In this document: positions 6,330-59,627 of the stretch, in pieces
How the letters are laid out: every line of letters starts with the position of its first letter
Numbering within the stretch: the stretch's first letter is position 1
DNA from: Planctomycetota bacterium
Lineage (GTDB): Bacteria > Planctomycetota > JAJSAM01 > JAJVHW01
DNA length: 64,000 nt
Assembly (NCBI GenBank): GCA_965248445.1
Contig: CBDFJG010000001.1
Coordinates: 558,131 to 622,130 of the forward strand
Direction of reading: 5' to 3'
Notes under the pieces: generated by a model
What the model was told of the DNA's origin: nothing
What the model saw: only the letters and a program-made list of their open reading frames with translations
Databases searched by the model: none
Made by a program: the position numbers and the translations under genes

Positions 6330-8855
6330 CTACTGCTCGATGTCGAAGTCCCGATTCCCGAGAAGCTCTCGAGTCTGGCCCTGGATCGTCACGTCCGCCG
6401 CGCTGTCCGTCGCCGGCAGGTTCTGCAGATCGGGCACGCCGTAGAACAGGTAGACCACGCCGCTCGGGTCGCCCGGCGGCCCGAACGTGAACGGGGACGC
6501 GACGTACACGTCCATGCGGCCATCGCCGTTGACGTCGCCCTTGCCCGCATACGTTCCGAAGCCGGCTGCCCTCTCGCTGCCGCCGATCCGCCGGGACGCC
6601 CCGGTCTGCTGGATCGTACCGATGAGATCGGTGGTGCGGAAGACGAAGGCCGCGCCGCCGAGGGAGACGCTCAGGGACGTGTTGGAGTCCGGAATGACCA
6701 ACTCGTCCCGGCCATTGCCGTCCAGGTCCGCGGCCAGCATGACTTCGACCCCCCATGACTGCAGGGACGGGTTGATCTTGACGTCGGCGTCGCTGGTGGA
6801 CTTCGAGCCGAACGATGCCCCGCCCTGGAACAGCCACACGGCTCCGCTGAACCCGCCCGTGAGGGGGTCGAACAGGATCAGGTCGCCTGTGGAGTCTCCG
6901 ATCACGTCGGCGATCAGCGACACGAAGCCGAGCGACTCCGTGGATTCCGCAGCCGTGATCACCGCGCCCGCCGAAGCGAGTGTCGGCTGATCCAGGAGAG
7001 ACAGTGCGCTGCCGCCGGCGAACACGTAGACGTCGTTGCCGCCGTCGCCCCCTTGCTGCAACGACACAATGTCGTCCTTCGTATCCCCGAAGAGGTTGCC
7101 ACACGCACGCACCCAGAGGACCGTGGAGCCCTCGCCCGTGACCTTCTGGCTCGCGTTGCTCGAGAGCCCGTTCACGATCACCGCCGCATCGAACACGTAG
7201 ATGAAGGGCTTGAAATCCGGAGAGGATCCGAACGACGTGACGACCAGATCCAGACGTCCGTCGCCGATCACGTCGCCCACGCAGATCGAGTTCCCGAACC
7301 CCTCCTGGCTGACGCCGCCGATCGTGACGTCGGCGTCGGCGAACGGATTGATCGAGCCCGCGAACCCCGCGCCGCCGAAGAAGATGTGCACCGCGCCGTC
7401 GATGTTGTTCGCGAACTGGTCCGCGACGATCAGGTCGTCCTGCCCGTCGCCGGAGAGGTCGGCTACTACGAAGCTCTGCCCGAACAGGTCGAACTGGTCC
7501 CCGGATGCAAAGAACGCGTCCACCGACGTGGCGGTTGAGAGCGCGGACGGCAGTGTGTCGCTGCCGAAGATCACTTGCACGTTGTTCGGGTTGAGCGCTG
7601 CTCCGCCCGCGCTTCCGGTCGCGATGACGATATCCGCGAACTGGTCGCCGTTCAGGTCGCCCGGCACTGTCATCGGCGGGACCACGCGATCCACGGAGCC
7701 GACGGCCTGGTACTCGCTGAAGTGCGAGACGATGGCCGTGATGAGGCCCGCACCGAAATCGACCGTGAAGTCGGTGACGTCCAGCAGTGCGATGTTCCCG
7801 TCCTCGTCCTTCACCGCGACCTGCACGTCGCCGGCCTCGTTGAACAGCGCCGGGTTGAACGGCAGGATGATCGTCGCGGCCACTCCGAACTGAAGGCCGT
7901 CCGGACCGAAGAACACCGCGGGACCGCCGGGGTCGGTCCCGTCGACCGGCACGCCGAGACCGCTTCCGATGATGATTGCCGACGGCTTGCCGAGCGCACC
8001 CGGTGGGACGAACACGGCTGCGCCTAAGAGGTCACCGAGCTCCCCCTCGGTGATGGCGAGGTTGCCCCCGGCCGGACCGATCACCTTGCCCCGTGCGTCG
8101 TCGCTGGCGAGTTTCGCGTCCGTGATCTCGACGATCTGCTTCTTGTCGGTCTTCGGCGCCTTGATGCCGATCGAGACGTCGACGTCGCCCCCCGGACCGG
8201 TGCTCGAGACGAACAACAGGTGATTGCCGAAGTCGCCGAGCACGACGTCCTTCTGCTTGTGCTTGCTCGCCCCTGCCTCGGGGGCCGGGAACGTGAACTC
8301 CGGGTCGTCGCCGCCGATGTCGACGGTCTCCATCACCGGCTCCGCATCCGATCGCTTGCTGGCCTTCGCCTGGAACTTGCACTTCGCGCCGGGATCGATC
8401 GCGAAGCCGACAATCTGCTGGCCGCCGGAAGTGTCCACCGTCTCCTTGAACTTCTTGGAGCTCTTCCACTTGACCTTCGCTTCGTAGTTCCCGACGGCGC
8501 TTGCCTGGATCACGACGCGGTACTTGCCGCTGACGGGAATCGGGAGCTTCTTGAGCTTCGCCCCGACACCTTTGACCGAGACCAGTCCGGCGGAGATCTC
8601 GGTGTCGCCCTGGTCGAGCACCTTGAAGGTCACGTTCGGCGCGGGAGTCCCGCCCTTGACCTTCTTGCCCTTTACAGAAACGGACAGCGTCGCACCGGCA
8701 GGAATGCACGCTGTGAGCGTCTCGAGCTCGTCCACCGGGTCGATCGTGCCGCGGACCTTCTGTCCGTTGGCGACCTCGATGTCGATGTCCGCGCGGCCGG
8801 TTGCCACGAGCGTGATCAGCACGAGGAGCGAAGCAAACGCGAATCGGCGGGACAT
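6330..8855 (-). CDS. Large secreted FG-GAP/VCBS-repeat protein (integrin-alpha-like beta-propeller repeats)
   Basis: 841 aa; ATG at 8855 with GGAGG SD; signal peptide MSRRFAFASLLVLITLVATGRA; repeated hydrophobic-FG...GD-hydrophobic-NGDGxxDL units (ADLSGDGQDDL, GDVIGDGRLDL, ADLDGNGRDEL, GDVNGDGRMDV). Confidence 0.8.
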   Translation of the reverse strand: MSRRFAFASLLVLITLVATGRADIDIEVANGQKVRGTIDPVDELETLTACIPAGATLSVSVKGKKVKGGTPAPNVTFKVLDQGDTEISAGLVSVKGVGAKLKKLPIPVSGKYRVVIQASAVGNYEAKVKWKSSKKFKETVDTSGGQQIVGFAIDPGAKCKFQAKASKRSDAEPVMETVDIGGDDPEFTFPAPEAGASKHKQKDVVLGDFGNHLLFVSSTGPGGDVDVSIGIKAPKTDKKQIVEITDAKLASDDARGKVIGPAGGNLAITEGELGDLLGAAVFVPPGALGKPSAIIIGSGLGVPVDGTDPGGPAVFFGPDGLQFGVAATIILPFNPALFNEAGDVQVAVKDEDGNIALLDVTDFTVDFGAGLITAIVSHFSEYQAVGSVDRVVPPMTVPGDLNGDQFADIVIATGSAGGAALNPNNVQVIFGSDTLPSALSTATSVDAFFASGDQFDLFGQSFVVADLSGDGQDDLIVADQFANNIDGAVHIFFGGAGFAGSINPFADADVTIGGVSQEGFGNSICVGDVIGDGRLDLVVTSFGSSPDFKPFIYVFDAAVIVNGLSSNASQKVTGEGSTVLWVRACGNLFGDTKDDIVSLQQGGDGGNDVYVFAGGSALSLLDQPTLASAGAVITAAESTESLGFVSLIADVIGDSTGDLILFDPLTGGFSGAVWLFQGGASFGSKSTSDADVKINPSLQSWGVEVMLAADLDGNGRDELVIPDSNTSLSVSLGGAAFVFRTTDLIGTIQQTGASRRIGGSERAAGFGTYAGKGDVNGDGRMDVYVASPFTFGPPGDPSGVVYLFYGVPDLQNLPATDSAADVTIQGQTRELLGNRDFDIEQ

Positions 8856-8886
8856 GACTCACCTCCCCCCGACCAGTATGCCACCC

Positions 8887-9246
8887 CTATGCCATGACCG
8901 CCCTGTCCCGTGAGCCCGGCCTGGCTGCGCTACTGGCCGGAGCCGAACTCCTGGTTCCCGATCGCCTCATCCCCAGCGCCGTCGATGATGAGGTGTCACC
9001 CGCATCGAGCACCTTGAACGTGACGTTCGGCGCCGGAGTCCCGCCCTTCACCTTCTTGTCCTTGGCGATGACGGTAAGCGTGGAGTCGCCTGGGATGCAG
9101 AGGGTGAGCGTCTCCTTCTCGGAGACGGGGTCGATCGTCCCGCGGACCTTCTGTCCGTTGGCGATCTCGATGTCGACGTCGGCGCGGCTCTGCACGCAGA
9201 GCGCCGCGAGGACGACGCACGCGGCGATCACGATCCGATTCCGCAT
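8887..9246 (-). pseudogene. Truncated paralogous copy of the FG-GAP protein N-terminal domain
   Basis: DNA 8993-9246 is ~80% identical to 8602-8855; encodes MRNRIVIAACVVLAALCVQSRADVDIEIANGQKVRGTIDPV... then diverges. Confidence 0.4.
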
Positions 9247-9415: not shown

Positions 9416-10397
9416 TCAGGGGATGAAGACGTTACCCGTGCCGGAGTCACTCACGTTCGTACCCGAGATCCCCACGAACACGTTGCCCGGTCCGATCTGG
9501 TTGTTGTCACTCCCCGGCAGCAGACGCACGCCCGTGGTGAGGCTCTTGAGCTTGTTGGCGCGGATCGTGTTGCCGTCGGAGGTGTGCATCTCGATGCCCG
9601 TTCCGGCGCCGATCACCTTGTTGCGGCGCACGACGGAGTCGACCAAGTTGCCGGTGTAGATGCCGATGGCGCCGGGGTTCGCGAGCAGGATCTTGTTCCG
9701 GTCGACGAGGACGTCGTCTTCGTAGACGACGATCCCGTACTCGGCCGCGCCGGTGATCTTGTTACCGCGCACGACGGCGTTCCCGGCCGTGGCCCGGATG
9801 CCACGCGGCATCCCCTCGATACGGCAGCCCTCGACCAGCTGGTCGACGGTGGGCGACGTCGGTTCGAGGTAGATCCCGTAGACGAACCCAGCACCGACCG
9901 GCGCGAACACCTTGCACTTCAGGGCCTGGAGGCGCTCAGCGACGCGCAGCTCGAACACATGTCCCGTCGGGGCGCCGGTGAAGGTCGCGCTCACGCGCTC
10001 CATGGAGAGTCGGTCACACGCGCACGCCGCCAGGTGCGCTCATCGAGAGCTTCTGCAGCGTGACACCCGATGAGTTGAGCACGCGCATCGCGTACCCACC
10101 GCCGGCCTGGATGACCGTGGTGCCCTTACCGCGGATGAGCAGGTTGTCGACGTTGTTGACGACCACGTTCTCGGCGTACGTGCCGCCGACGATGAGGATG
10201 ACGTCTCCGTCATTCGCCGCATTCACGGCGCCCTGGATCGTCAGGTGGTCTTGCGGGACCCTCAGCACGTCGGCCATCGCCGTCGTCGTCAGAAGACCCA
10301 GTACCAAGCTCGAAAGCATGAACTTGCGCATCTCTTCCTCCTTCGAGGCCGGGTGGGCAACCAGCCCGCCGTTTCTTGGCCTCGACCCCCTGAACAC
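9416..10397 (-). pseudogene. Secreted right-handed parallel beta-helix repeat protein, split between two reading frames
   Basis: N-terminal ORF 10014..10397 (signal peptide MRKFMLSSLVLGLLTTTAMA, beta-helix start) and C-terminal ORF 9416..10003 (beta-helix repeats VVRGNKITG, VRRNKVIG, IRANKL) are adjacent but in different frames. Could be a genuine frameshift or a sequencing error. Confidence 0.5.
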
Positions 10398-11160: not shown

Positions 11161-12345
11161 TCAGGCCCTTTCGAACAGGACCGCCATGCCCATGCCTCCG
11201 GAGACGCAGAGCGTCGCAATGCCCCTCCGGGCGCCGCGTCTCTTCATCTCGTGAAGCAGCGTGACACAGATTCGCGAGCCCGTCGCGCCGATCGGATGCC
11301 CGAGTGCAATCGCGCCGCCGTTGACGTTCATCCGATCTCCGTCGATGTGCAGATCCCGGTCGCACGCGATCACCTGCGCCGCGAACGCCTCGTTCAGCTC
11401 GATGAGGTCGATGTCGTCGAGCGACAGGCTCTGCCGCTCGAGCAGTTGCCGCACGGCCGGCACCGGGCCGATGCCCATGATGTTGGGGTCGACCCCGGCG
11501 ACGGTCCAGTCGACCACGCGTGCCATCGGCTCCACGCCGAGCGCCTCTGCGCGCTCCGCCGTCAGCACGACCATGGCCGCAGCTCCGTCCGTGATGCCCG
11601 AGGAGTTGCCGGCGTGGACCGTGCCGTCCTTCTTGAAGACGGGCTTCAGCTTCTTCATGCGCTCCGCGGTGCTGTCCGCCCGCGGGTGCTCGTCGGTGTC
11701 GACGATCGTCGGGCCCTTGCGCCCGGGGATCTCGATCGCGAACGACTCGTCCTGCCAGACACCCCGCTCGGTGGCCGCGGCACATCGTGCCTGAGACCGC
11801 TCTGCATAGGCGTCCTGCTCGTCGCGGGAGATGTCGTACTGCTCCGCCAGGTTCTCCGCCGTCTTGCCCATGAGCTGATCGGAGATCGGACACTGGAAGC
11901 CGTCGCGGTACATCCCGTCCACGACCTCGGAGTTGCCGAGGCGGTAGCCGAAGCGCGCGTTCAGCAGGAAGTACGGCGTGTTCGACATCGACTCGGTACC
12001 GCCGACCAGGAGCGTGTCGCGCCGTCCGAGCTGGATCGCATCGTGGGCAAGCGCGACCGCCTTGAGCGACGACGCGCAGGCCTTGTTCACCGTCATGGCG
12101 GGAGAGCTGACGGGAACGCCGGCGCGGACCGAGACCTGCCGCGCCGTGTTGGTGCCGCCGCCGGCCTGCCGGCCGTGGCCGAAGAGCGTCTCCTGGACGT
12201 GCTCCGGCCCAACCCCGGAGCGGCGCAGCGCCTCGGTCGCTGCGGCAACTCCGAGGTCGGCGGGACTGAGCTTGATCAGCCCGCCCCCGAACCTCCCGAT
12301 CGGGGTCCGGACCGCTCCGGCAACGACAACTTCAACTGCGGACAT
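11161..12345 (-). CDS. Acetyl-CoA C-acetyltransferase (thiolase II)
   Basis: ATG at 12345 with GGAGGA SD; MSAVEVVVAGAVRTPIGRFGG, NKACASSLKAV (active-site Cys region), C-terminal GHPIGATGSRI and CVSGGMGMAVL thiolase signatures. Confidence 0.9.
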   Translation of the reverse strand: MSAVEVVVAGAVRTPIGRFGGGLIKLSPADLGVAAATEALRRSGVGPEHVQETLFGHGRQAGGGTNTARQVSVRAGVPVSSPAMTVNKACASSLKAVALAHDAIQLGRRDTLLVGGTESMSNTPYFLLNARFGYRLGNSEVVDGMYRDGFQCPISDQLMGKTAENLAEQYDISRDEQDAYAERSQARCAAATERGVWQDESFAIEIPGRKGPTIVDTDEHPRADSTAERMKKLKPVFKKDGTVHAGNSSGITDGAAAMVVLTAERAEALGVEPMARVVDWTVAGVDPNIMGIGPVPAVRQLLERQSLSLDDIDLIELNEAFAAQVIACDRDLHIDGDRMNVNGGAIALGHPIGATGSRICVTLLHEMKRRGARRGIATLCVSGGMGMAVLFERA

Positions 12346-12546
12346 CGAATTCCTCCGAACTCTTGTCTTGCGAACGCGAGAGCGTACCCGAGGCGGTGTG
12401 ACGGGGGACACGTCGCACGGGGCGTAGCCGCCTCGAAACCGTGGAAAACCAAGGCGTGGGGGCCGGCCGGGCCGGAGGGGCGCTATCCTCAGATGCCGGA
12501 ACAATGGGAACCCGCCAGGGGCTCCTCAACGTCCGACAGTGTGTCC

Positions 12547-12662
12547 GGCTCAACCGCTGACGCGGTTGATGCGGGGCTCGGCGGCGGATGCCGTCGAAGC
12601 ACGGAGGAGCCGCTTGGCGGGCGCGTTGTCTTCTGGCTCACCGGCTGACGCCGGTGATGCGG
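12547..12662. promoter_or_regulatory. Pair of 28-bp motifs, each with a perfect 7-bp palindrome, in a divergent intergenic region
   Basis: GGCTCAaCCGCTGACGCGGTTGATGCGG at 12547-12574 and GGCTCAcCGGCTGACGCCGGTGATGCGG at 12635-12662. Stems CAACCGC/GCGGTTG and CACCGGC/GCCGGTG differ by compensatory changes. Sits between the divergent thiolase and lipoprotein genes. Confidence 0.3.
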
Positions 12663-12900
12663 ATAGCAGCGGACAGATCGAAGAGACAAAACGCGGAGAG
12701 ACGGTTGATGCCCGCCCGAGACGACCACGAACTGAGCCTGGCCGCGCTGCGGCCGGCGTCCCCGATTGGGGACAGAACGGTCGTCTCTCGCCCTCAGCCC
12801 GTTCGGCCCGCGGTTCGCGTCTCTACCCTGCCAATACCAAAACGGCCCATCCCATGGCATGGATGACGCCGCGTCCTTGTTCGTCCGGAGGAGGTCCCCG

Positions 12901-14811
12901 ATGAACCACCGATCTCGCACTGCTGCGCGCCACGCGCGTCCCCTCGCTCTCATCACCGCCTTGGCCGTGCTGGCAGGCTGCTCCGCCGAGCTGACCGACA
13001 CCGGCGCGCTCGAACGGCAGGATGCCGTGCGCACCGTCGTCGCTCAGGATCTGGCCAAGCGGGTCGCTCCGCTGCCGGCTCCCGCGGTTCCGGTCGTCGC
13101 GGCCGGCGCGCTGCCGGTGACGGCGATCGCGGCTTCAGTGGCCGACATCGCACCCCTCGCGGCACCGCAGGAAGACGGCGTCCGCTTCGACGGCGAAGCG
13201 GCCCGCAAGCTCGCTGAGGAGAACGCGCGCTTGCAGGCCGAGCTCCGCCGCACCACGGAAGAGCTCGAGAGCACACGTCAGCGGGAGCGCGACCTGCGCC
13301 TGCCGCCACCGCCCAAGCCCGTGCTCGTCGAGAGCACGGACGGACAGGCGATCGGCGTCGGCGGCGGCCACCCCGTGCCCGACCCGATCCCCGGCACCGT
13401 ACCGCTGGCCGCAGCGCTCGGAGGGACGGTGTACGACCAAGGTCAGCCCGTCGAACGCGAGGTGGTCACCGGAGCCCGTGAGGACTTCGTGATCGTCGAC
13501 GACCGCGAGCCCGAGGTCATTTACGTCGAGGAGCAGGAGCCCGAGGTCATCTACGTCGAGCGCGAGGCGCCCGCCGTCGTGTACGAGCAGGTGGTCTACG
13601 AGACCGAGGTCGTCTACCAGTGGATCCCGTTCGGACACCGCCACTACATCGGCTGCGGACACCACTACTACGGCTGCCACGATCACGCCTGGTACTACAA
13701 CCTCGGCGGTCACTTGGACTTCCATCTGTCCGGGCACGACTGGGATCTGTACTCGCACTTCGGGTACTCGAACTCGTACCACCACGGCCACCACGGCTAC
13801 CGCTACCGCCACCACGGCGGCGGCCACCACTTCGCGTACTACGACCGCCACGACGACCATCACGACGACCACCGCACCGGTCGCCGCAAGGCCTTCAAGC
13901 GCGGCTTCCGCCAGGGCTTCAACGACGGCGTGGCTGCGGGCGGCGGCGTGGGCGGTGTCGGAGGCGGTGGCGCTGTCCCCGTGCGGCGCCGTCTGGGCGA
14001 TACGGGCACCACGGCGACGTCATCCACCGCGACGACACGTCGCGGCCGCGACGGCGGCGGTGCGACTGCCGGGCGGGAGAACCCGCGCGGCCTGAGCCCC
14101 ACCTCCAGCACCCGGAGTTCGACAGGCCGCACTCGGAGCACGACCGGTCAGGCCACCGAGTCGACGTCCCCGCGCCGACGCTTCGGCGTCTCCGGAGAGA
14201 GCACCTCGCCACGCACGACCCGGCGGGGCTCCGCAACGTCAACCGACCGCGGGACCAGCACGAACACGCGCCGTGACCGCGGCGCCGTCGCAACGGAGAA
14301 CCCGGTGACACGCACCCGGCGGGACCGCACGGCCGTGGACACAAACGGGACCACGCGCCGCAGCCAGAACACGCCGACCGTGGTGCGCACGCGCCGCAGT
14401 GGTCAAGCGGGCCAGCCCGGCCTCTCCGGGCGCCGTAACGTGAGCCGTACGACGTCGAACGTGACGCGCACGACCACTCCCACTGTGCGCACACGCACAA
14501 CGGCGCCCACGCGGCGCACGCGCACCGCTCCCACACAGCGGACGCAGCGGACGCCGGAGACCCGCACGCGGACGGCCCCGACCCCTCGGGTCCAGCGCTC
14601 GCCGCCGACCCGAACCCGCCGCGCACCGACGACCCGCCGCGCACCCACGACCCGCTCGGCCCCCACGCGCTCCCCCCAGGTGCGCAGGGCTCCACAGTCA
14701 GCGCCGTCACGCACCCGCCGATCGGCACCGAGGCCCCAGCAAAGAGCGGCACCGAGCACGCGAAACCGGGGCGGTAACGGCGGCGGCGCGAGGCGCCGGC
14801 GCAACCGCTGA
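12901..14811 (+). CDS. Lipoprotein with His/Tyr-rich segment and long Thr/Arg/Pro-rich low-complexity C-terminus
   Basis: ATG at 12901; lipobox LAVLAGCSAE; His-rich block HRHYIGCGHHYYGCHDHAWYY...HHGHHGYRYRHHGGGHHFAYYDRHDDHHDDH; C-terminal repeats RTRTAPT, TRRAPTTR. Whether the C-terminal third is really translated is uncertain in this GC-rich DNA. Confidence 0.55.
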   Translation: MNHRSRTAARHARPLALITALAVLAGCSAELTDTGALERQDAVRTVVAQDLAKRVAPLPAPAVPVVAAGALPVTAIAASVADIAPLAAPQEDGVRFDGEAARKLAEENARLQAELRRTTEELESTRQRERDLRLPPPPKPVLVESTDGQAIGVGGGHPVPDPIPGTVPLAAALGGTVYDQGQPVEREVVTGAREDFVIVDDREPEVIYVEEQEPEVIYVEREAPAVVYEQVVYETEVVYQWIPFGHRHYIGCGHHYYGCHDHAWYYNLGGHLDFHLSGHDWDLYSHFGYSNSYHHGHHGYRYRHHGGGHHFAYYDRHDDHHDDHRTGRRKAFKRGFRQGFNDGVAAGGGVGGVGGGGAVPVRRRLGDTGTTATSSTATTRRGRDGGGATAGRENPRGLSPTSSTRSSTGRTRSTTGQATESTSPRRRFGVSGESTSPRTTRRGSATSTDRGTSTNTRRDRGAVATENPVTRTRRDRTAVDTNGTTRRSQNTPTVVRTRRSGQAGQPGLSGRRNVSRTTSNVTRTTTPTVRTRTTAPTRRTRTAPTQRTQRTPETRTRTAPTPRVQRSPPTRTRRAPTTRRAPTTRSAPTRSPQVRRAPQSAPSRTRRSAPRPQQRAAPSTRNRGGNGGGARRRRNR

Positions 14812-15034
14812 CGCACGATTTATCAGACTGAGAGTGAGCGAGGGTGCCGCCCGGCGGCACCCTCGCGCTCGTTTGCAGAGCACGCTCACAGTCACGATAC
14901 GCGCGGCGGAAGCGCGTCGCGCACCGACCCGTCGGGACGACCTGCAAGACCCCGTTTCTCGCGCTGAGATTCGCCTCAAAACGCGAACTTTCGGGAGCCT
15001 TCACGCAGGCTCGGATTCGTGCCGATGAGAGCGC

Positions 15035-15445
15035 GTGAGAACAGCTCAGGCCACGGCCCTCCCTCCCGTCTACACACCCGCATCCGCAGTGAAGGCGCTG
15101 CCGCTGATCCGCTCGATCGCGCGTGATGCGCATGCGACGTATCTGCGACTGCGCGAACGCCTCGCCGCGTTCAACGACTTCAAGTCGCTCGAGGAACTCT
15201 CGAGCGATCTGAGCCTTCCACACAAGGTCCGCGACGACCTTGCGGAGTTGCGGGACCACGTCGTCGAACTCGGTGACCACCTGGGCGCCCGTTTCGGCGA
15301 GCCCGAGCTGGGGATCGTGTATCTGGACGCGCGTCTCGGCCGCCGCCGGGTGCAGCTCTGCTGGAAGCTCGGCGAGGAGACCATCCGGTACTGGATCCCG
15401 GTGGACGGCGACTACGACGAGCGCCGGCCGCTCCCGGGCGTCTAG
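15035..15445 (+). CDS. Hypothetical protein (136 aa)
   Basis: ATG-initiated ORF at the left edge of the IS island; no recognisable motif. Confidence 0.4.
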   Translation: MRTAQATALPPVYTPASAVKALPLIRSIARDAHATYLRLRERLAAFNDFKSLEELSSDLSLPHKVRDDLAELRDHVVELGDHLGARFGEPELGIVYLDARLGRRRVQLCWKLGEETIRYWIPVDGDYDERRPLPGV

Positions 15446-15449
15446 CCCG

Positions 15450-17114
15450 AATCGTTCACCAGCCGGGAATCTGAGCGGGCCGTCGTCTGTCTAAGTGCTC
15501 GTACTCGCTAGTACTTGCACCGACAGGAGCGCCGGCCCGATGACGACAGACTGTAGCCCGCAGGGGACCCTCTTCGCGGGCATCTGTGGACGCACCGCGG
15601 TGACGCGCTTCGACGCCGGTACCGTGACGAGCGACGGGGGCGTGCTGCTGCTCGAGCGGGTCGATCGTCGCATCGATCTGCTCTCGCGGTTTGCGCGCTG
15701 CTTCGGGGACCACCGGGACCCGCGTCGGGTCGAGCACACGGTCGGCCAGATGCTGCGTCAGCGGGTCTTCGGGCTGTGCGCGGGCTACGAGGATCTGGTG
15801 GACCACGACCATGTCGGCAAGGACCCGCTGTTTGCCGCGGCGTGCGGCAAGCGCGAGGGTGCTCTGGCCACGCACCCGACGCTCTCGCGGCTCGAGACCA
15901 CGCAGCTCGGCGCCACGGCACAGACGCGCTACGCCAAGATCGAGATGGACCAGGAGCGCGTGGACAGCGTGCTCAGCGACGTCTTCTGCGAGGCCATGGG
16001 GCCGGAGGATCCGGGCCTGCTCGTGCTGGACCTGGACCACTCCGACGTGCGGCTGCACGGCCGGCAGGAGGGCCGCTTCTTCCACGGCTACTACGGGCAC
16101 TACTGCTACCTGCCGCTGTACGTCTTCTGCGGCGAGCACCTCTTGCTCGCTCGGCTCCAGACCGCTGACAGAGATCCCGCGCGCGGAGTCGTGGACGAGC
16201 TCCGTGCGCTGGTCTTACGTCTGCGGCGCCGCTGGCCCCGGGCCAAGGTGCTCGTGCGCGCAGACTCGGGCTTTTGCCGCGAGGAGCTGATGGCCTGGTG
16301 CGAGGCCGCCGGCCACTTCTACCTGCTGGGCATGGCGCGCAATGAGCGCCTTGAGCGACACGTCGAAGACGCGCTCGATGAGGCCGCAGCCCGTGCCGTG
16401 CAGACCGGCCGAGCAGCCCGGGTCTTTCGCGACTTTGCCTGGACCACGCTGGGGAGCTGGAGCCAGAGGCGTCGCGTGGTCGCCAAGGCCGAGCACCTGC
16501 CGGGCGGCAAGCGCAATCCCCGCTTCGTGGTGACCAATCTGCCGCCTCGTAGCTGGAGCAGCAAGCGTCTCTACGAGCAGCTCTACTGCGCCCGGGGCGA
16601 GGCGGAGAATCGCATCAAGGAGCAGCAGCTCGAGCTCTTCGGCACCCGTCTGTCGGTGCACACGATGCAGGGCAACGCCGTGCGGATGGCCATGTCGGCC
16701 ATGGCCTACGTCCTGACCTGTGCGCTGCGACGCATCGGTCTCGCCGGCACCGAGATGGCGCGTGCGCAAGCCGGCACGATCCGCCTGCGGCTGCTCAAGA
16801 TCGGCGCGCTCGTGCGGATCACGACGCGCCGGATCTGGGTCTCGATGTCCTCGTCGTGGCCCTGGCAGCACGTCTTCGAGCGCTGCGCGCAACGACTGCT
16901 GGCATCCCCGAAGCCGACCTGACGTCCCGCCGCGCCGTCCGCCACACCACCGCCCGGCCTACGGTCTGCCCACACCGCAGAATCCGCGCCGTTTCGGCCG
17001 CTCACTCGCGTTGCCCTTGTGGCAACGACGACAGCATCCGCCCTCGCCTGGCCAAGATCTGACCCTGTGGACTCCGAAAGCACCGTCATCGCGACGTCTC
17101 GTGAACAGATGCGG
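15450..17114 (+). mobile_element. IS1380-family insertion sequence (boundaries approximate)
   Basis: Contains an intact IS1380-type transposase; terminal inverted repeats could not be identified by eye. Confidence 0.5.
15495..16922 (+). CDS. IS1380 family DDE transposase
   Basis: 475 aa (likely true start at ATG 15540); GYEDLVDHDHV and C-terminal RGEAENRIKE motifs typical of IS1380 transposases. Confidence 0.85.
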   Translation: MLVLASTCTDRSAGPMTTDCSPQGTLFAGICGRTAVTRFDAGTVTSDGGVLLLERVDRRIDLLSRFARCFGDHRDPRRVEHTVGQMLRQRVFGLCAGYEDLVDHDHVGKDPLFAAACGKREGALATHPTLSRLETTQLGATAQTRYAKIEMDQERVDSVLSDVFCEAMGPEDPGLLVLDLDHSDVRLHGRQEGRFFHGYYGHYCYLPLYVFCGEHLLLARLQTADRDPARGVVDELRALVLRLRRRWPRAKVLVRADSGFCREELMAWCEAAGHFYLLGMARNERLERHVEDALDEAAARAVQTGRAARVFRDFAWTTLGSWSQRRRVVAKAEHLPGGKRNPRFVVTNLPPRSWSSKRLYEQLYCARGEAENRIKEQQLELFGTRLSVHTMQGNAVRMAMSAMAYVLTCALRRIGLAGTEMARAQAGTIRLRLLKIGALVRITTRRIWVSMSSSWPWQHVFERCAQRLLASPKPT

Positions 17115-17386
17115 CTAAGTCCGATGAACAACGCCGCCGAGCGCGCGGTCCGCAAAGCGGTGCTCTGGCGCAAGGGCTCCTTCGGAAGCCAGTCCGCTCG
17201 CGGACTCCGCTTCGCCGAGCGCGTGTTGACCGCCGCGGCCACGCTGCGACGCCGTGGCGACCAAGTCTTCGACTTCCTCGCCGACTCGGTCGCCGCGCAC
17301 CTCACCGGCGCCGACCCGCCCGTCATGGTCCCGCTGCCCGTCGCACGCTGAGGCTCACACGCTGTCAAGGGGTGAACGGTTACCTG
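17115..17386 (+). mobile_element. 3'-terminal remnant of an IS66-A element
   Basis: Encodes the last ~75 aa of the IS66-A transposase (NNAAERAVRKAVLWRKGSFGSQSARGLRFAERVL...) followed by the terminal repeat AAGGGGTGAACGGTTAC at 17370-17386. Confidence 0.7.
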
Positions 17387-20267: not shown

Positions 20268-20947
20268 TGCATATCCGGTTAATGACCGCGCCCACTACAT
20301 CTTGTGCTAGAAGGGCAGCGGGCTTGCAGGCTCGTCGGCGTAGACCTGTTCGTACGTGCGCGGCGGCGTCTTCGCCGCGATGCCGAGGACCGTCTGGAAC
20401 GCTGCCTGCGGCGTGCGTCTCCTGTTGAACCGGAACGTGAACTCGTCGAGATACCGCTGCAGGTGCTTCTCCGAGACCCGGCCGTGGTGCGTGCCTACGA
20501 GCCAGGTCTTGAGGTTGGAGAAGACCAGGTGGTGCAGGTGCCTCAGGACGTCCGCCTGCGCCGCGCCCATCATCGTGGACTCGATCCCGTGCTCGTAGCC
20601 GAGTTTCTCGACTGCGTCGTAGGTCTCGTGGCCGTCGGTCACGACGAGCGCCCCACGCTCGATGCTGTCCTTGACGAACGCCAGCAGGTGCGGCTTCGAT
20701 GAGGCCGGCACGTGGCGCAGCCGGATGCGTCCGGGCTGTGTGCCTCTCTTCGTCGGACGCACCTCGACCGCGCCGACCACGACGGCCTTGTCTGCCGCGG
20801 TGCGCTCCTCTCGGCCTCGAAACGGCGCTCCGATCAGCGCCTCGTCGACCTCGACGACGCCGAACAACTGCGCGCGCTCCGGCGCGACCATCGCAGATCG
20901 CAGTTTCTGGAGCATCTGGTACGCGGTCTCGTAGCGGGTCAGACCGA
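20268..20947 (-). mobile_element. IS1595-family element, 5'-truncated copy
   Basis: Terminal repeat GCATGCATATCCGGTTAATGACC at 20268-20290; transposase C-terminal 202 aa (ORF 20307..20915) near-identical to the full copy at 24838-25878; identity ends at about 20947. Confidence 0.75.
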
Positions 20948-22270
20948 GCTGTCGCTGGAGCCAGGGTCGAGCGGAACCTGTTCAGCGGCCAGCGGTCCGA
21001 CGACCCCGGCGTCGACATCGACGGGCCGAACGCCGTGGTGCAAAAGAACCGGTTCGTCTACGGCCTCGGCGTCGGCATCCAGGTCGATGCCGAGAACGGT
21101 GGAACGGCCACGGTCTGCAAGAATACGGTCGATTCGATGGCGGGCGACTCCTACATCCTGGTGGAGAACGCGGCGGGCCCCAGGGTCCTGAAGAACGTCT
21201 TCAAGAACGCTTACATTGGCGATAGCTACGACCACGTCATCGACCTCCAGTCCTGTGACGACGCCCTAGTCTCCGGCAACAAGATACTGACGATGAACTA
21301 CTCCATCGAGAGGGGGATCAACGTCGCGGGCGAACGGGCGACGGTAACGAAGAACTGCATCGAGAACGTGAATGGCTACTACTACGACCTGTATTGCATC
21401 TACGTGCAGGGGAACGACGCCGCGATCAGCCGCAACAAGATCCGGATCTGCGGCGCCGGGGAGGAATCCGACACGTATGCGATCTACGTTTCCGGGAACA
21501 CAGCGAGCGTCACGCGAAACGCGATCAACGACATAGCTGGTGGCGGCGACGAGATCTTCGGGGTCTATATCGACGGCGACGACGGCTCCATCGACGGCAA
21601 CCGGATCAGCCACCTGAACGAAGAGTACACGTACGCCATCTACTACACCGGCCACAGGGCCCGGATCGTCAAGAACAGGATCGCGCACGTGATGGCTGAC
21701 GGGGACATCTACGTCCGCGGCGATGACTTCCTGATCGAGAACAACACCGTCAGGGACGGAGCGTACTACTGCACCGGTATCTACACGCGCGGATCCGCCA
21801 CGATGCTCGGGGCGGCGGTGATCCAGCGGAACTCACTGAGCTTTCTCGGGTCGGACGGCATCGACCACGGAGGCAACGGGGTGGTCATCCGCGACAACAA
21901 GCTGAACCACCTGGCGGGGTTCGGGGTGATTGCGGACGGAAACGACAACGTGCTGATCGGTAACAGTGTGTCGGGCACGTACACGGCCGCTTTCCACATC
22001 GATGGCAACGACAACAGCGTGACGGGTTGTGCCGCCAGGGACAGCGACGGAGACGGGTTCAGGATCCAGGGCAACAACAACACGCTGGAGAACTGCACGG
22101 CGTCCAACTGCGCCGCCGAGGGCCTCGACAACAGCGGCACCGACACCAGCGCGATGAACTGCCGGTTCACCGGCTCCCGAATCGACTACGCCGGCAACAA
22201 CAACATGATCGACGACACCGGAACGACGTTCGGGACCGGAAGTGCCGCGACCGCGCCCGAGATCAACTGA
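20948..22270 (+). pseudogene. Right-handed parallel beta-helix repeat protein, 5' end replaced by the IS1595 fragment
   Basis: Repeats of the form hydrophobic-x-x-N-x-hydrophobic and G-N-x-hydrophobic (VTKNCIENV, ISRNKIRI, VTRNAIND, IVKNRIAHV, VIRDNKLNHL); the N-terminal region and signal peptide are missing upstream of 20948. Confidence 0.65.
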
Positions 22271-24837: not shown

Positions 24838-25878
24838 CATGCATATCCGGTTGACGACCGTGACCCCAAGGGGTAGTGTCTCGGACGCATGCCGAAGCCG
24901 GGCTACCCTCGCAACATCGTGGAGTTCACGGAGCAGTTCGCGACGGAAGAGCAGTGCCTCGAGTACCTCGTGCAGTGTCGTTGGCCCGACGGGTTCCGCT
25001 GCCGCCGGTGCGGCGGCAAGAAGTACTGGCCCCGTCCAGATCGAAGAGCGATGCGGTGCGTGGGCTGCGACCTGATCACGTCGGTCACCGCGGGCACAGT
25101 GCTGCATCGCAGCCGGCTGCCGCTGAAGTCCTGGATGTGGGCCGCGTACTTGATGACGACGGACAAGCGGGGCGTCTCTGCGCTCGCACTCCAGCGACAG
25201 CTCGGTCTGACCCGCTACGAGACCGCGTACCAGATGCTCCAGAAACTGCGATCTGCGATGGTCGCGCCGGAGCGCGCGCAGTTGTTCGGCGTCGTCGAGG
25301 TCGACGAGGCGCTGATCGGAGCGCCGTTTCGAGGCCGAGAGGAGCGCACCGCGGCAGACAAGGCCGTCGTGGTCGGCGCGGTCGAGGTGCGTCCGACGAA
25401 GAGAGGCACACAGCCCGGACGCATCCGGCTGCGCCACGTGCCGGCCTCATCGAAGCCGCACCTGCTGGCGTTCGTCAAGGACAGCATCGAGCGTGGGGCG
25501 CTCGTCGTGACCGACGGCCACGAGACCTACGACGCAGTCGAGAAACTCGGCTACGAGCACGGGATCGAGTCCACGATGATGGGCGCGGCGCAGGCGGACG
25601 TCCTGAGGCACCTGCACCTGGTCTTCTCCAACCTCAAGACCTGGCTCGTAGGCACGCACCACGGCCGGGTCTCGAAGAAGCACCTGCAGCGGTATCTCGA
25701 CGAGTTCACGTTCCGGTTCAACAGGAGACGCACGCCGCAGGCAGCGTTCCAGACGGTCCTCGGCATCGCGGCGAAGACGCCGCCGCACGTACGAACAGGT
25801 CTACGCCGACGAGCCTGCAAGCCCGCTGCCCTTCTAGCACAAGATGTAGTGGGCGCGGTCATTAACCGGATATGCATG
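24838..25878 (+). mobile_element. IS1595-family element, full-length copy with 8-bp target-site duplication
   Basis: 22-bp imperfect terminal repeats CATGCATATCCGGTTGACGACC / GGTCATTAACCGGATATGCATG; direct repeat CTCCAAAG at 24830-24837 and 25879-25886. Confidence 0.85.
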
Positions 25879-59060: not shown

Positions 59061-59627
59061 TCACCAGTGATGGCCGAACCCGAAGCCGTAGCCGTGGTGG
59101 CCGCCGTAGTGGCCGAACCCGAAGGACCAGTGGCCGTAGTGCGGGTACGCGTCATGGTAGGCGTATCGCACCCGCTCGAAGTTGACGTGTCCGTCCGCGG
59201 TCTTGTTCCCGACGAGGGCCCTCCAGCGGACGGCCAGGCCGTCGAGGTCGACGTCGACGTCCTCGGGGAGCCCGAAGTACGCCGTGAACTGCCGCGACGT
59301 ACCAGCCGGGACCGTCGTGTCACCGTCCGGGCCGAAGCCCACCAGCGGTAGGTCGATCAGGTCGGCCGACACGGCGTTCAGGTGCTCCTTCTGGAGCGTG
59401 ACGTCCCGGTCGGGTGGCGCTTCGATGCGGAGCCGGACGTCCACCGACTCGGGCAGTCCGTCGGCGGCCGAGGCGCGGCGCACACCTTCGACGGCGGCGA
59501 GCACGCGGGCCTTGCTCTCGGTGACAGCGACGGCGGGAGCCGGCGAGTACTGAAAGCCGGGACGGTAGGTGGAGCAGGCGGAGAGCAGCAGCAGGGCCGC
59601 CGCGGGAATGAGGATGCGATGGGTCAT
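59061..59627 (-). CDS. Lipoprotein with C-terminal His/Gly/Tyr/Trp-rich tail
   Basis: ATG at 59627 with GGAGAG SD; lipobox LLLLSAC; tail HYGHWSFGFGHYGGHHGYGFGFGHHW. Confidence 0.65.
   Translation of the reverse strand: MTHRILIPAAALLLLSACSTYRPGFQYSPAPAVAVTESKARVLAAVEGVRRASAADGLPESVDVRLRIEAPPDRDVTLQKEHLNAVSADLIDLPLVGFGPDGDTTVPAGTSRQFTAYFGLPEDVDVDLDGLAVRWRALVGNKTADGHVNFERVRYAYHDAYPHYGHWSFGFGHYGGHHGYGFGFGHHW

Follow-up and report, generated by a model that had tools for sequence, protein, structure and literature searches.

Does a long open reading frame (ORF) that ends in a low-complexity Thr/Arg/Pro-rich tail encode one protein from its first codon to its last, and what might such a protein do? 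The question is raised by the ORF at 12901-14811 (plus strand) in a 64,000-nucleotide stretch of the genome of a Planctomycetota bacterium (contig CBDFJG010000001.1, positions 558,131 to 622,130); this whole stretch is called the window below. A first-pass annotation had described the product as a lipoprotein with a dense histidine cluster and a repetitive tail, and had allowed that the ORF might over-extend in this GC-rich DNA. The results presented here make it almost certain that 12901-14811 is a single intact protein-coding gene, tail included, that is, a real gene with a translated tail. Its product is a member of an unnamed, very rare family of exported, mostly lipid-anchored proteins.

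The frame is open from 12766 to 14811, and the ATG at 12901 gives a product of 636 amino acids, with the stop codon at 14809-14811. Upstream of this ATG a Shine-Dalgarno-like element, GGAGGAGG, can be read at 12887..12894 on the plus strand, with a spacer of 6 nt. The N-terminus, MNHRSRTAARHARPLALITALAVLAGC, shows the classical arrangement of a bacterial lipoprotein signal: a basic n-region, then a hydrophobic core of 12 residues, then the lipobox L-A-G-C with Cys27. Residues 1-27 (12901..12981, plus strand) were read from the translation as a lipoprotein signal peptide with the h-region LALITALAVLA, and the segment MNHRSRTAARHARP-LALITALAVLA-G-C27 agrees with the lipobox pattern [LVI][ASTVI][GAS]C. 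The Pfam profile LPAM_1 matches the protein weakly (E=0.044), under its cutoff. Among the 14 family members, about 10 carry a lipobox-like xxGC or xxSC and the remainder a plain signal or anchor; every member with a complete N-terminus has either a lipobox or a signal peptide. The description of the product as a lipoprotein is borne out by the lipobox in the window protein and in these relatives, and it is quite probable, as judged from sequence, that the protein is exported and lipid-anchored.

The tail comprises residues 347-636 (13939..14808, plus strand). In the first-pass annotation, a collapse of the G+C content at third codon positions (GC3) after about 13900 was named as the sign of a non-coding tail. 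No such collapse was seen: in the frame of the ORF, GC3 holds at 0.78-0.88 from 13900 to the stop and drops to 0.62-0.72 only past 14811. Codon usage was assessed with a synonymous-codon score, unaffected by amino-acid composition and trained on 13 other window ORFs with a coding-like GC pattern. For the tail, frame +0 gave the top score of the six frames (0.447, with 0.433 for frame +2 and 0.413 for frame -1), while the N-terminal part scored 0.565 and the reference genes 0.53-0.64. The codon-usage check thus ranks the annotated frame highest, but the margin is narrow and the result is suggestive rather than decisive.

The decisive evidence is comparative. All relatives have an in-frame tail, of 55-336 amino acids, after the conserved core. 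When the tails of nine loci were analysed at the DNA level, frame +0 was the sole frame free of stops in all nine, and each other frame was stopped in at least two loci; in the locus L001, which is among the closest relatives, the five alternative frames of the tail hold 2-6 stops each. Because only frame +0 is open in all nine loci and the relatives carry in-frame tails, the tail is coding, and with GC3 also sustained to the stop, the suspicion of an over-extended ORF is refuted. The opposite account, in which the ORF simply runs on past about 13900-13950 in GC-rich, T-poor DNA and the tail is untranslated, or in which the true coding frame there is a different one or lies on the other strand, we consider most improbable. 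It draws on properties of the window copy, where the G+C content at second codon positions of the tail (0.83) is as high as GC3, where frames +2 and -1 score nearly as high as frame +0, and where frame -2 is also stop-free, lying within a 453-codon minus-strand ORF (13919-15280). That minus-strand frame is interrupted in L001, L082 and L083, and its product would be rich in Cys, Trp and Arg. It was therefore rejected as a gene; lying opposite the tail and the spacer downstream of it, it is a shadow ORF of GC-rich DNA. The repeat periods detected within 12901-14811 by Tandem Repeats Finder are, in addition, all multiples of 3, and an amino-acid motif is conserved in frame within the tail.

This short linear motif, RSPQVRRAP, occupies residues 590-598 (14668..14694, plus strand) and was located with a regular expression and evaluated by a shuffle test. 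Its general form, RS-x2-3-VRR-x-P, is found in four divergent members at a distance of 28-48 residues from the C-terminus: the window protein, L001, L003/P0002 and P0013. In composition-matched shuffles the chance of finding the pattern was 0.2-0.6% per tail, for a motif defined post hoc; that four tails share it at about the same place far exceeds what chance would give.

In composition, the tail (290 amino acids) is rich in Arg (23%), Thr (22%), Ser, Pro and Gly, has a net charge of +55 and ends in the basic cluster RRRRNR. Hydrophobic residues make up 6.6% of it, compared with 31% in the background. Together with this low hydrophobic content, the AlphaFold2 predicted local distance difference test (pLDDT) values of 30-50 and the absence of DSSP secondary-structure elements over residues 347-636 support the earlier proposal that the tail is a disordered region. 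The tail had also been said to consist of RTRTAPT-like repeats. There is one clear array of this kind, an in-frame 18-nt tandem repeat of three copies, TRRAPT-TRRAPT-TRSAPT (14614..14667, plus strand; Tandem Repeats Finder), but the rest of the tail is of low complexity with no regular repeat. The tails of the relatives are likewise Arg-rich and usually have a cluster of basic residues at the end.

The relatives were reached by way of the neighbouring thiolase gene (11164-12345, minus strand), which is divergent from the lipoprotein gene. In the three closest Planctomycetota metagenome-assembled genomes (MAGs), whose thiolases are 86, 77 and 76% identical, tblastn detected a homologue of the lipoprotein, placed relative to the thiolase gene as in the window, with E = 4e-47, 1e-35 and 4e-22. 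An exhaustive phmmer search against 1.84 billion cluster representatives gave 13 matches, 12 of them true relatives (best E=2e-30); the match P0005 was rejected as a repeat artefact. Scanning 241 million metagenome records for the core motif added one further locus only, and a search with a four-sequence core profile returned one 73-amino-acid fragment. All identifiable source genomes of family members are Planctomycetota MAGs. The window protein and its closest relative share about 47-61% identity in the best-conserved core segment, and since identity is no higher than this, synonymous sites between the two are probably saturated.

Searches against named families were negative. With Pfam and NCBIfam the window protein fell into no family, and the only matches at E<=1 were LPAM_1 and DUF3300 (E=0.16), both below cutoff; the 13 family members have no Pfam family in common. 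Among the profiles of these two databases there was also no match to the named His-rich metal-binding families (streptococcal Pht, SilE/PcoE and others). The PDB sequence search gave no relative (best E=1.4). Word-indexed searches with residues 1-348 and with a 13-sequence core profile returned nothing, their lists of 8000 candidates being probably swamped by low-complexity words. A scan of genome contigs with the window protein's own peptides gave no relative, and exact-sequence look-up of this protein and of a second window lipoprotein described below found nothing on record. Literature searches that covered DUF2203 and DUF3300 as well as YacH and the His-rich lipoproteins of planctomycetes brought up no functional study of this lipoprotein family. 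We define the family by a signal peptide, an RALAEEVARLR-type helix, VVYExVVY strands, a Cys/His signature and a long low-complexity tail. Window residues 226-265 carry all the invariant columns of the family alignments A3 and A5, except for a Cys-to-Asp change at one nearly invariant column. The protein is a sequence-novel but architecturally familiar exported lipoprotein of a very small, planctomycete-specific family.

Following the signal peptide is an Ala/Pro/Val-rich linker (residues 28-97; 12982..13191, plus strand), which was delimited by composition and is poorly conserved in the family alignment; within it AlphaFold2 predicts a helix at 34-54 with moderate confidence, the rest being of low confidence. 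Residues 98-132 (13192..13296, plus strand) form a conserved amphipathic, coiled-coil-like helix with the family consensus RPIDExAIRALAEEVARLRAxL. Its hydrophobic residues are spaced 3-4-3-4, L104, E107 and L111 are invariant in alignment A6, and in both AlphaFold2 models no other segment reaches pLDDT >90. An acidic region follows (residues 136-243; 13306..13629, plus strand), in which strand-like repeats of the type EPEVIYVE / VVYEQVVYETEVVYQW can be seen, the family form in alignments A3 and A5 being (E/D)REVPVYV. Residues 226-243 of this region are predicted as a beta-hairpin with strands 226-233 and 236-243 (pLDDT about 56-62).

The best-conserved part of the family is the Cys/His core, FGHRHYIGCGHHYYGCHDHAWYY (residues 244-270; 13630..13710, plus strand; alignments A3 and A5). 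Its signature is H-x-H-x2-G-C-(G/A)-H-H-Y-Y-G-C-x-[C/D]-H, extended by x-(W/S)-Y, and columns H45, H47, G50, C51, H53, H54, Y55, Y56, G57, C58, H61 and Y64 of A3 are invariant, in agreement with A5. Five invariant His, along with two or three Cys, thus lie within 17 residues. The window protein is the sole member in which Asp replaces the last core Cys (GCGHHYYGCHDH), with all other invariant residues kept; Cys252 and Cys259, within the same segment, are the only Cys of its mature form. A c-type heme site was considered and rejected, there being no CXXCH in the window protein, and the C-x-C-H of the relatives has one intervening residue. Further on lies a basic motif, RRKAFKRGFRQGFNDG (residues 328-346; 13882..13938, plus strand), which is identified by alignment and predicted by AlphaFold2, with low confidence, to contain a short helix at 329-337. 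A basic helix K/R-R-A-F-K-R-G-F-x-D-G-F characterizes a subgroup made up of the window protein, L001, L003/P0002, P0009 and P0013, and P0006 and P0011 have a degenerate form of it, Y-A-x-G-Y-x-N-G-F.

The dense His cluster noticed in the first-pass annotation is present, but the figure given for it, about 25 His in some 80 residues, was slightly high. Residues 244-324 (nt 13630-13872), 81 in all, include 22 His, 12 Tyr, 13 Gly and 9 Asp, whereas 25 is the number of His in the whole protein. The enrichment has P ~2e-17 relative to a background His frequency of 2.4%, the background composition being that of the 13 coding-like window ORFs mentioned above. Beyond the core, the block is variable (residues 271-327, with 16 His; 13711..13881, plus strand; delimited by composition) and contains in-frame micro-repeats of 9 and 12 nt at 13779-13801 and 13841-13873 (Tandem Repeats Finder). 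About 12 of the 14 members have a stretch rich in His, Asp or Cys after the conserved core, which supports the description of this region as a block of metal ligands. The sequences of these stretches differ and are not alignable; examples from the same position in relatives are DDDHDDHDHHDSHHDDGHHDD, CDDDDDCDDDRDCDD, HHHHRHYHRRHHHHH and HDDHDDHDHHHH.

Within the window, His-dense stretches in a frame with coding-like GC were found only in this protein and in the product of the ORF at 59061..59627 (minus strand). The latter is a lipoprotein of 188 amino acids with the lipobox LSAC and a Gly/His/Tyr/Phe-rich tail ending in ...HYGHWSFGFGHYGGHHGYGFGFGHHW, and it matched no Pfam or NCBIfam family. 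A second lipoprotein with a similar His/Gly/Tyr tail had been pointed out earlier, and it does exist, with a like composition; a relationship between the two is unsupported (BLASTP E>1), and paralogy was rejected, composition being all that they share.

Gene order around the family gene is conserved. In the window the downstream neighbour is a DUF2203 protein of 136 amino acids (15035..15445, plus strand; Pfam PF09969, E=1.9e-14). In five relatives whose contigs were retrieved by protein look-up (L081-L085), the family gene is followed on one strand by a DUF2203 gene, at a gap of 51-150 nt, and then by a rubrerythrin-like gene. The same arrangement was observed in L001-L003, the downstream sequence in L003 being DUF2203-homologous, so that both neighbours are present downstream in eight of the nine relatives' loci, with L086 not assessable. 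Relatives with an upstream flank have a gene for an exported protein of 416-530 amino acids without a Pfam match before the family gene (L001, 8541-9923; L002, 5284-6540; L083, 6609-7859), and the divergent thiolase gene lies further upstream; the counterpart of this exported gene in the window is a 555-nt gap, 12346-12900. The position of the relatives' rubrerythrin-like gene is occupied in the window by an insertion sequence (IS) transposase, DDE_Tnp_1_4 (15495..16922, plus strand; Pfam E=8.8e-142), which is not part of the protein. Evidently the window locus has been rearranged, yet the lipoprotein ORF is intact.

Several IS copies lie downstream of the lipoprotein gene, between 15.5 and 31.5 kb. 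An inverted pair of 266-nt copies, 99% identical, was found at 1943-2208 and 17118-17383. Inverted arms at 20360-20960 and 25189-25786, 100% identical, surround an IS1595-type transposase, and an element with a 492-codon ORF is present twice (22395-~23921 and 29932-~31458; the first 300 nt are 100% identical). A direct repeat of 197 nt (80% identity) at 8601-8797 and 8992-9188 covers the 5' end of, and the sequence just upstream of, an FG-GAP repeat gene (6330-8858, minus strand). Two ORFs, 9416-10039 and 20675-22270, match NosD / right-handed beta-helix proteins (periplasmic copper-binding protein family), the first of which looks truncated at 207 amino acids.

How might such a protein work? 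Following Sec export and lipidation at Cys27, it would be tethered to the membrane in the periplasm by its Pro/Ala-rich spacer, and helix 98-132 may mediate self-association. The invariant Cys/His motif after the beta-hairpin would form a site for a divalent transition metal or, alternatively, a disulfide-closed His/Tyr loop. The His/Asp/Cys block, which appears to evolve fast and to grow partly by in-frame slippage, might serve as a metal sponge or buffer of higher capacity and lower affinity. The Arg-rich tail would stay unfolded as a flexible spacer or tether and, in the window subgroup, where it is strongly polycationic, could stick to anionic envelope components; this role of the tail we put forward tentatively. 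The metal hypothesis is proposed because an invariant His/Cys cluster, ligand-rich blocks in the relatives and a nearby gene of rubrerythrin-like type (a di-iron fold) occur together; metal binding as the core activity, which is read from composition and the invariant Cys/His residues, seems to us about evenly poised between true and false. The combination of a gene, a lipid anchor, a metal-binding core with a sponge and a flexible tail is the best overall explanation we can offer, and we hold it with middling confidence. A bolder version, in which HxHxxGCGHHYYGCxCH would be an undescribed metal or redox (Cys/Tyr) centre on a lipid-anchored coiled coil, forming with the sponge and the tail a lineage-specific periplasmic metal-buffering or condensate/adhesive system coupled to the DUF2203 and rubrerythrin-like genes, is a long shot.

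Several observations weigh against this metal-binding explanation. With the family alignment, AlphaFold2 gave no confident fold beyond helix 98-132, the core included. The invariant Cys pair, 6 residues apart, could be a plain disulfide in the oxidising periplasm. Since P0004 lacks the His/Asp block and P0009 has only a weak one, the block is not indispensable, and the net charge of the tail ranges from +3 to +55 across the family, so that polycation behaviour is not family-wide. Sec export of a tail with a net charge of +55 is also energetically awkward. As to the neighbours, neither the upstream exported gene nor the rubrerythrin-like gene of the relatives was found in the 64-kb window, and the DUF2203 and rubrerythrin-like proteins have no signal peptides. 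In L083 and L084 collinearity extends over a wide region that runs from AtuA and thiolase to Amidase_2 and PTS_EIIA. Because the whole surrounding region is collinear, the synteny is weak evidence for an operon and may reflect relatedness.

Other explanations were weighed as well. The protein might be a structural, scaffolding or adhesive component of the envelope, anchored by its lipid and coiled coil, in which the His/Tyr/Gly patch and the polybasic tail drive self-association triggered by pH or metal, as a gel, a coacervate or a holdfast-like material. A His/Gly/Tyr-rich block joined to a disordered Arg/Thr/Ser/Pro-rich tail resembles in composition what is found in self-associating and adhesive low-complexity proteins. 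About 80% of the window protein is predicted by AlphaFold2 to be unstructured, and the unrelated lipoprotein at 59061..59627, also Gly/His/Tyr/Phe-tailed, suggests a compositional theme in the envelope proteins of this organism. But the part held invariant in the family is compact, a Cys/His motif that resembles a binding site more than a bulk material; tail charge and composition are not conserved, and the Pfam, NCBIfam and PDB searches gave no homology to an adhesin or holdfast protein. We regard this account as unlikely. To an account in which function resides in the helix and the Cys/His core alone, as an interaction or regulatory module for the DUF2203 or rubrerythrin-like products or the upstream exported protein, we give similarly little credence. 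On this view replication slippage in GC-rich DNA would have produced both the His block and the tail, which would be tolerated and have no specific role. In-frame micro-repeats do occur in both, neither can be aligned between members, tail length, charge and composition vary widely, and P0004 lacks a His block; the conserved order of the neighbouring genes also fits. Against this stands the retention of a long tail in all members and of a ligand-rich block, in place, in most, which argues for selection on a property; the tails also hold the conserved short motif and the terminal basic cluster.

Finally, the window copy might be a decaying gene in an IS-ridden region, having lost its flanking partners and one conserved Cys. 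The absence of the upstream exported and rubrerythrin-like genes from the window, the transposase directly after the DUF2203 gene, the several IS copies and the Cys-to-Asp change at the CxCH position, found in this member only, would fit. A decaying gene is nevertheless very improbable, as the 636-codon ORF is intact and preceded by a Shine-Dalgarno element, the codon score of its N-terminal part equals that of the reference genes, and all remaining invariant residues are retained.

Taken together, what was possibly an over-called ORF becomes a family that can be named, with a signature motif, a domain order and a conserved neighbourhood; little is known of the cell envelope in the phylum to which it belongs. 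Should the Cys/His motif prove to bind metal, it would be a new exported metal-binding module and would offer a handle on DUF2203. The tail is a clean case of a long Arg/Thr-rich disordered region kept in frame across divergent relatives. Practical impact is limited, as only about a dozen of 1.84 billion clustered proteins represent the family.

Known systems offer three comparisons. Like the Braun-type lipoprotein Lpp, the window protein has an N-terminal lipid anchor, a heptad-like helix and a basic C-terminal end. Lpp is a protein of 58 amino acids, entirely helical and linked to peptidoglycan through its C-terminal Lys. In contrast, the helix of the window protein is about 35 residues in a mostly disordered protein of 636, and the two are not homologous. 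SilE/PcoE-type metal sponges, streptococcal Pht lipoproteins and the His-rich loops of ZnuA/ZinT are exported, partly lipid-anchored and partly disordered, and bind transition metals through clustered His, with or without Asp, Met and Cys. The window protein resembles them in export and in the clustering of His. In the Pfam, NCBIfam and PDB searches it showed no sequence relation to them, however, and it lacks both the repeated HxxHxH triads of folded domains and Met-rich motifs; unlike these proteins, the planctomycete family is distinguished by an invariant Cys/His/Tyr motif of its own and by an Arg-rich tail of great length.

The closest likeness by layout is to E. coli YacH (DUF3300, PF11737). 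YacH is regulated by the Cpx (envelope-stress) system, and its deletion alters survival of protamine (PMC9600279). DUF3300 was the Pfam near-match of the window protein (11.9 bits for the full protein; 14.4 bits, E=0.027, for a fragment), over profile positions 125-199 only. Membership in DUF3300 was rejected, these scores lying below the gathering threshold of 25 bits and only one of the 13 members matching; the N-terminal DUF3300 domain proper is absent from the planctomycete family. Homology to YacH was likewise rejected, with BLASTP at E=0.98 and an hhalign comparison (profile A5) that aligned just 32 columns of the His/Asp block with a probability of 71%. YacH has no lipobox, no coiled-coil helix and no GCGHHYYGC motif, and its tail is Arg/Gln-rich with regular repeats of about 32 amino acids. 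What the two have in common is the order of their parts: in YacH, too, a signal sequence is followed by VVY-type strand motifs (PDVVYIPNYNPTVVYG), after which come a block dense in Asp and His (DWDDDDHDHHHHDNDDYHHHDGGH) and a long tail of basic low-complexity repeats ending in RRLER. The product of E. coli K-12 yacH (L087; NC_000913 129407-131260) is in its Asp/His block and basic repeat tail very like the planctomycete family; such an architecture may turn up repeatedly in exported proteins.

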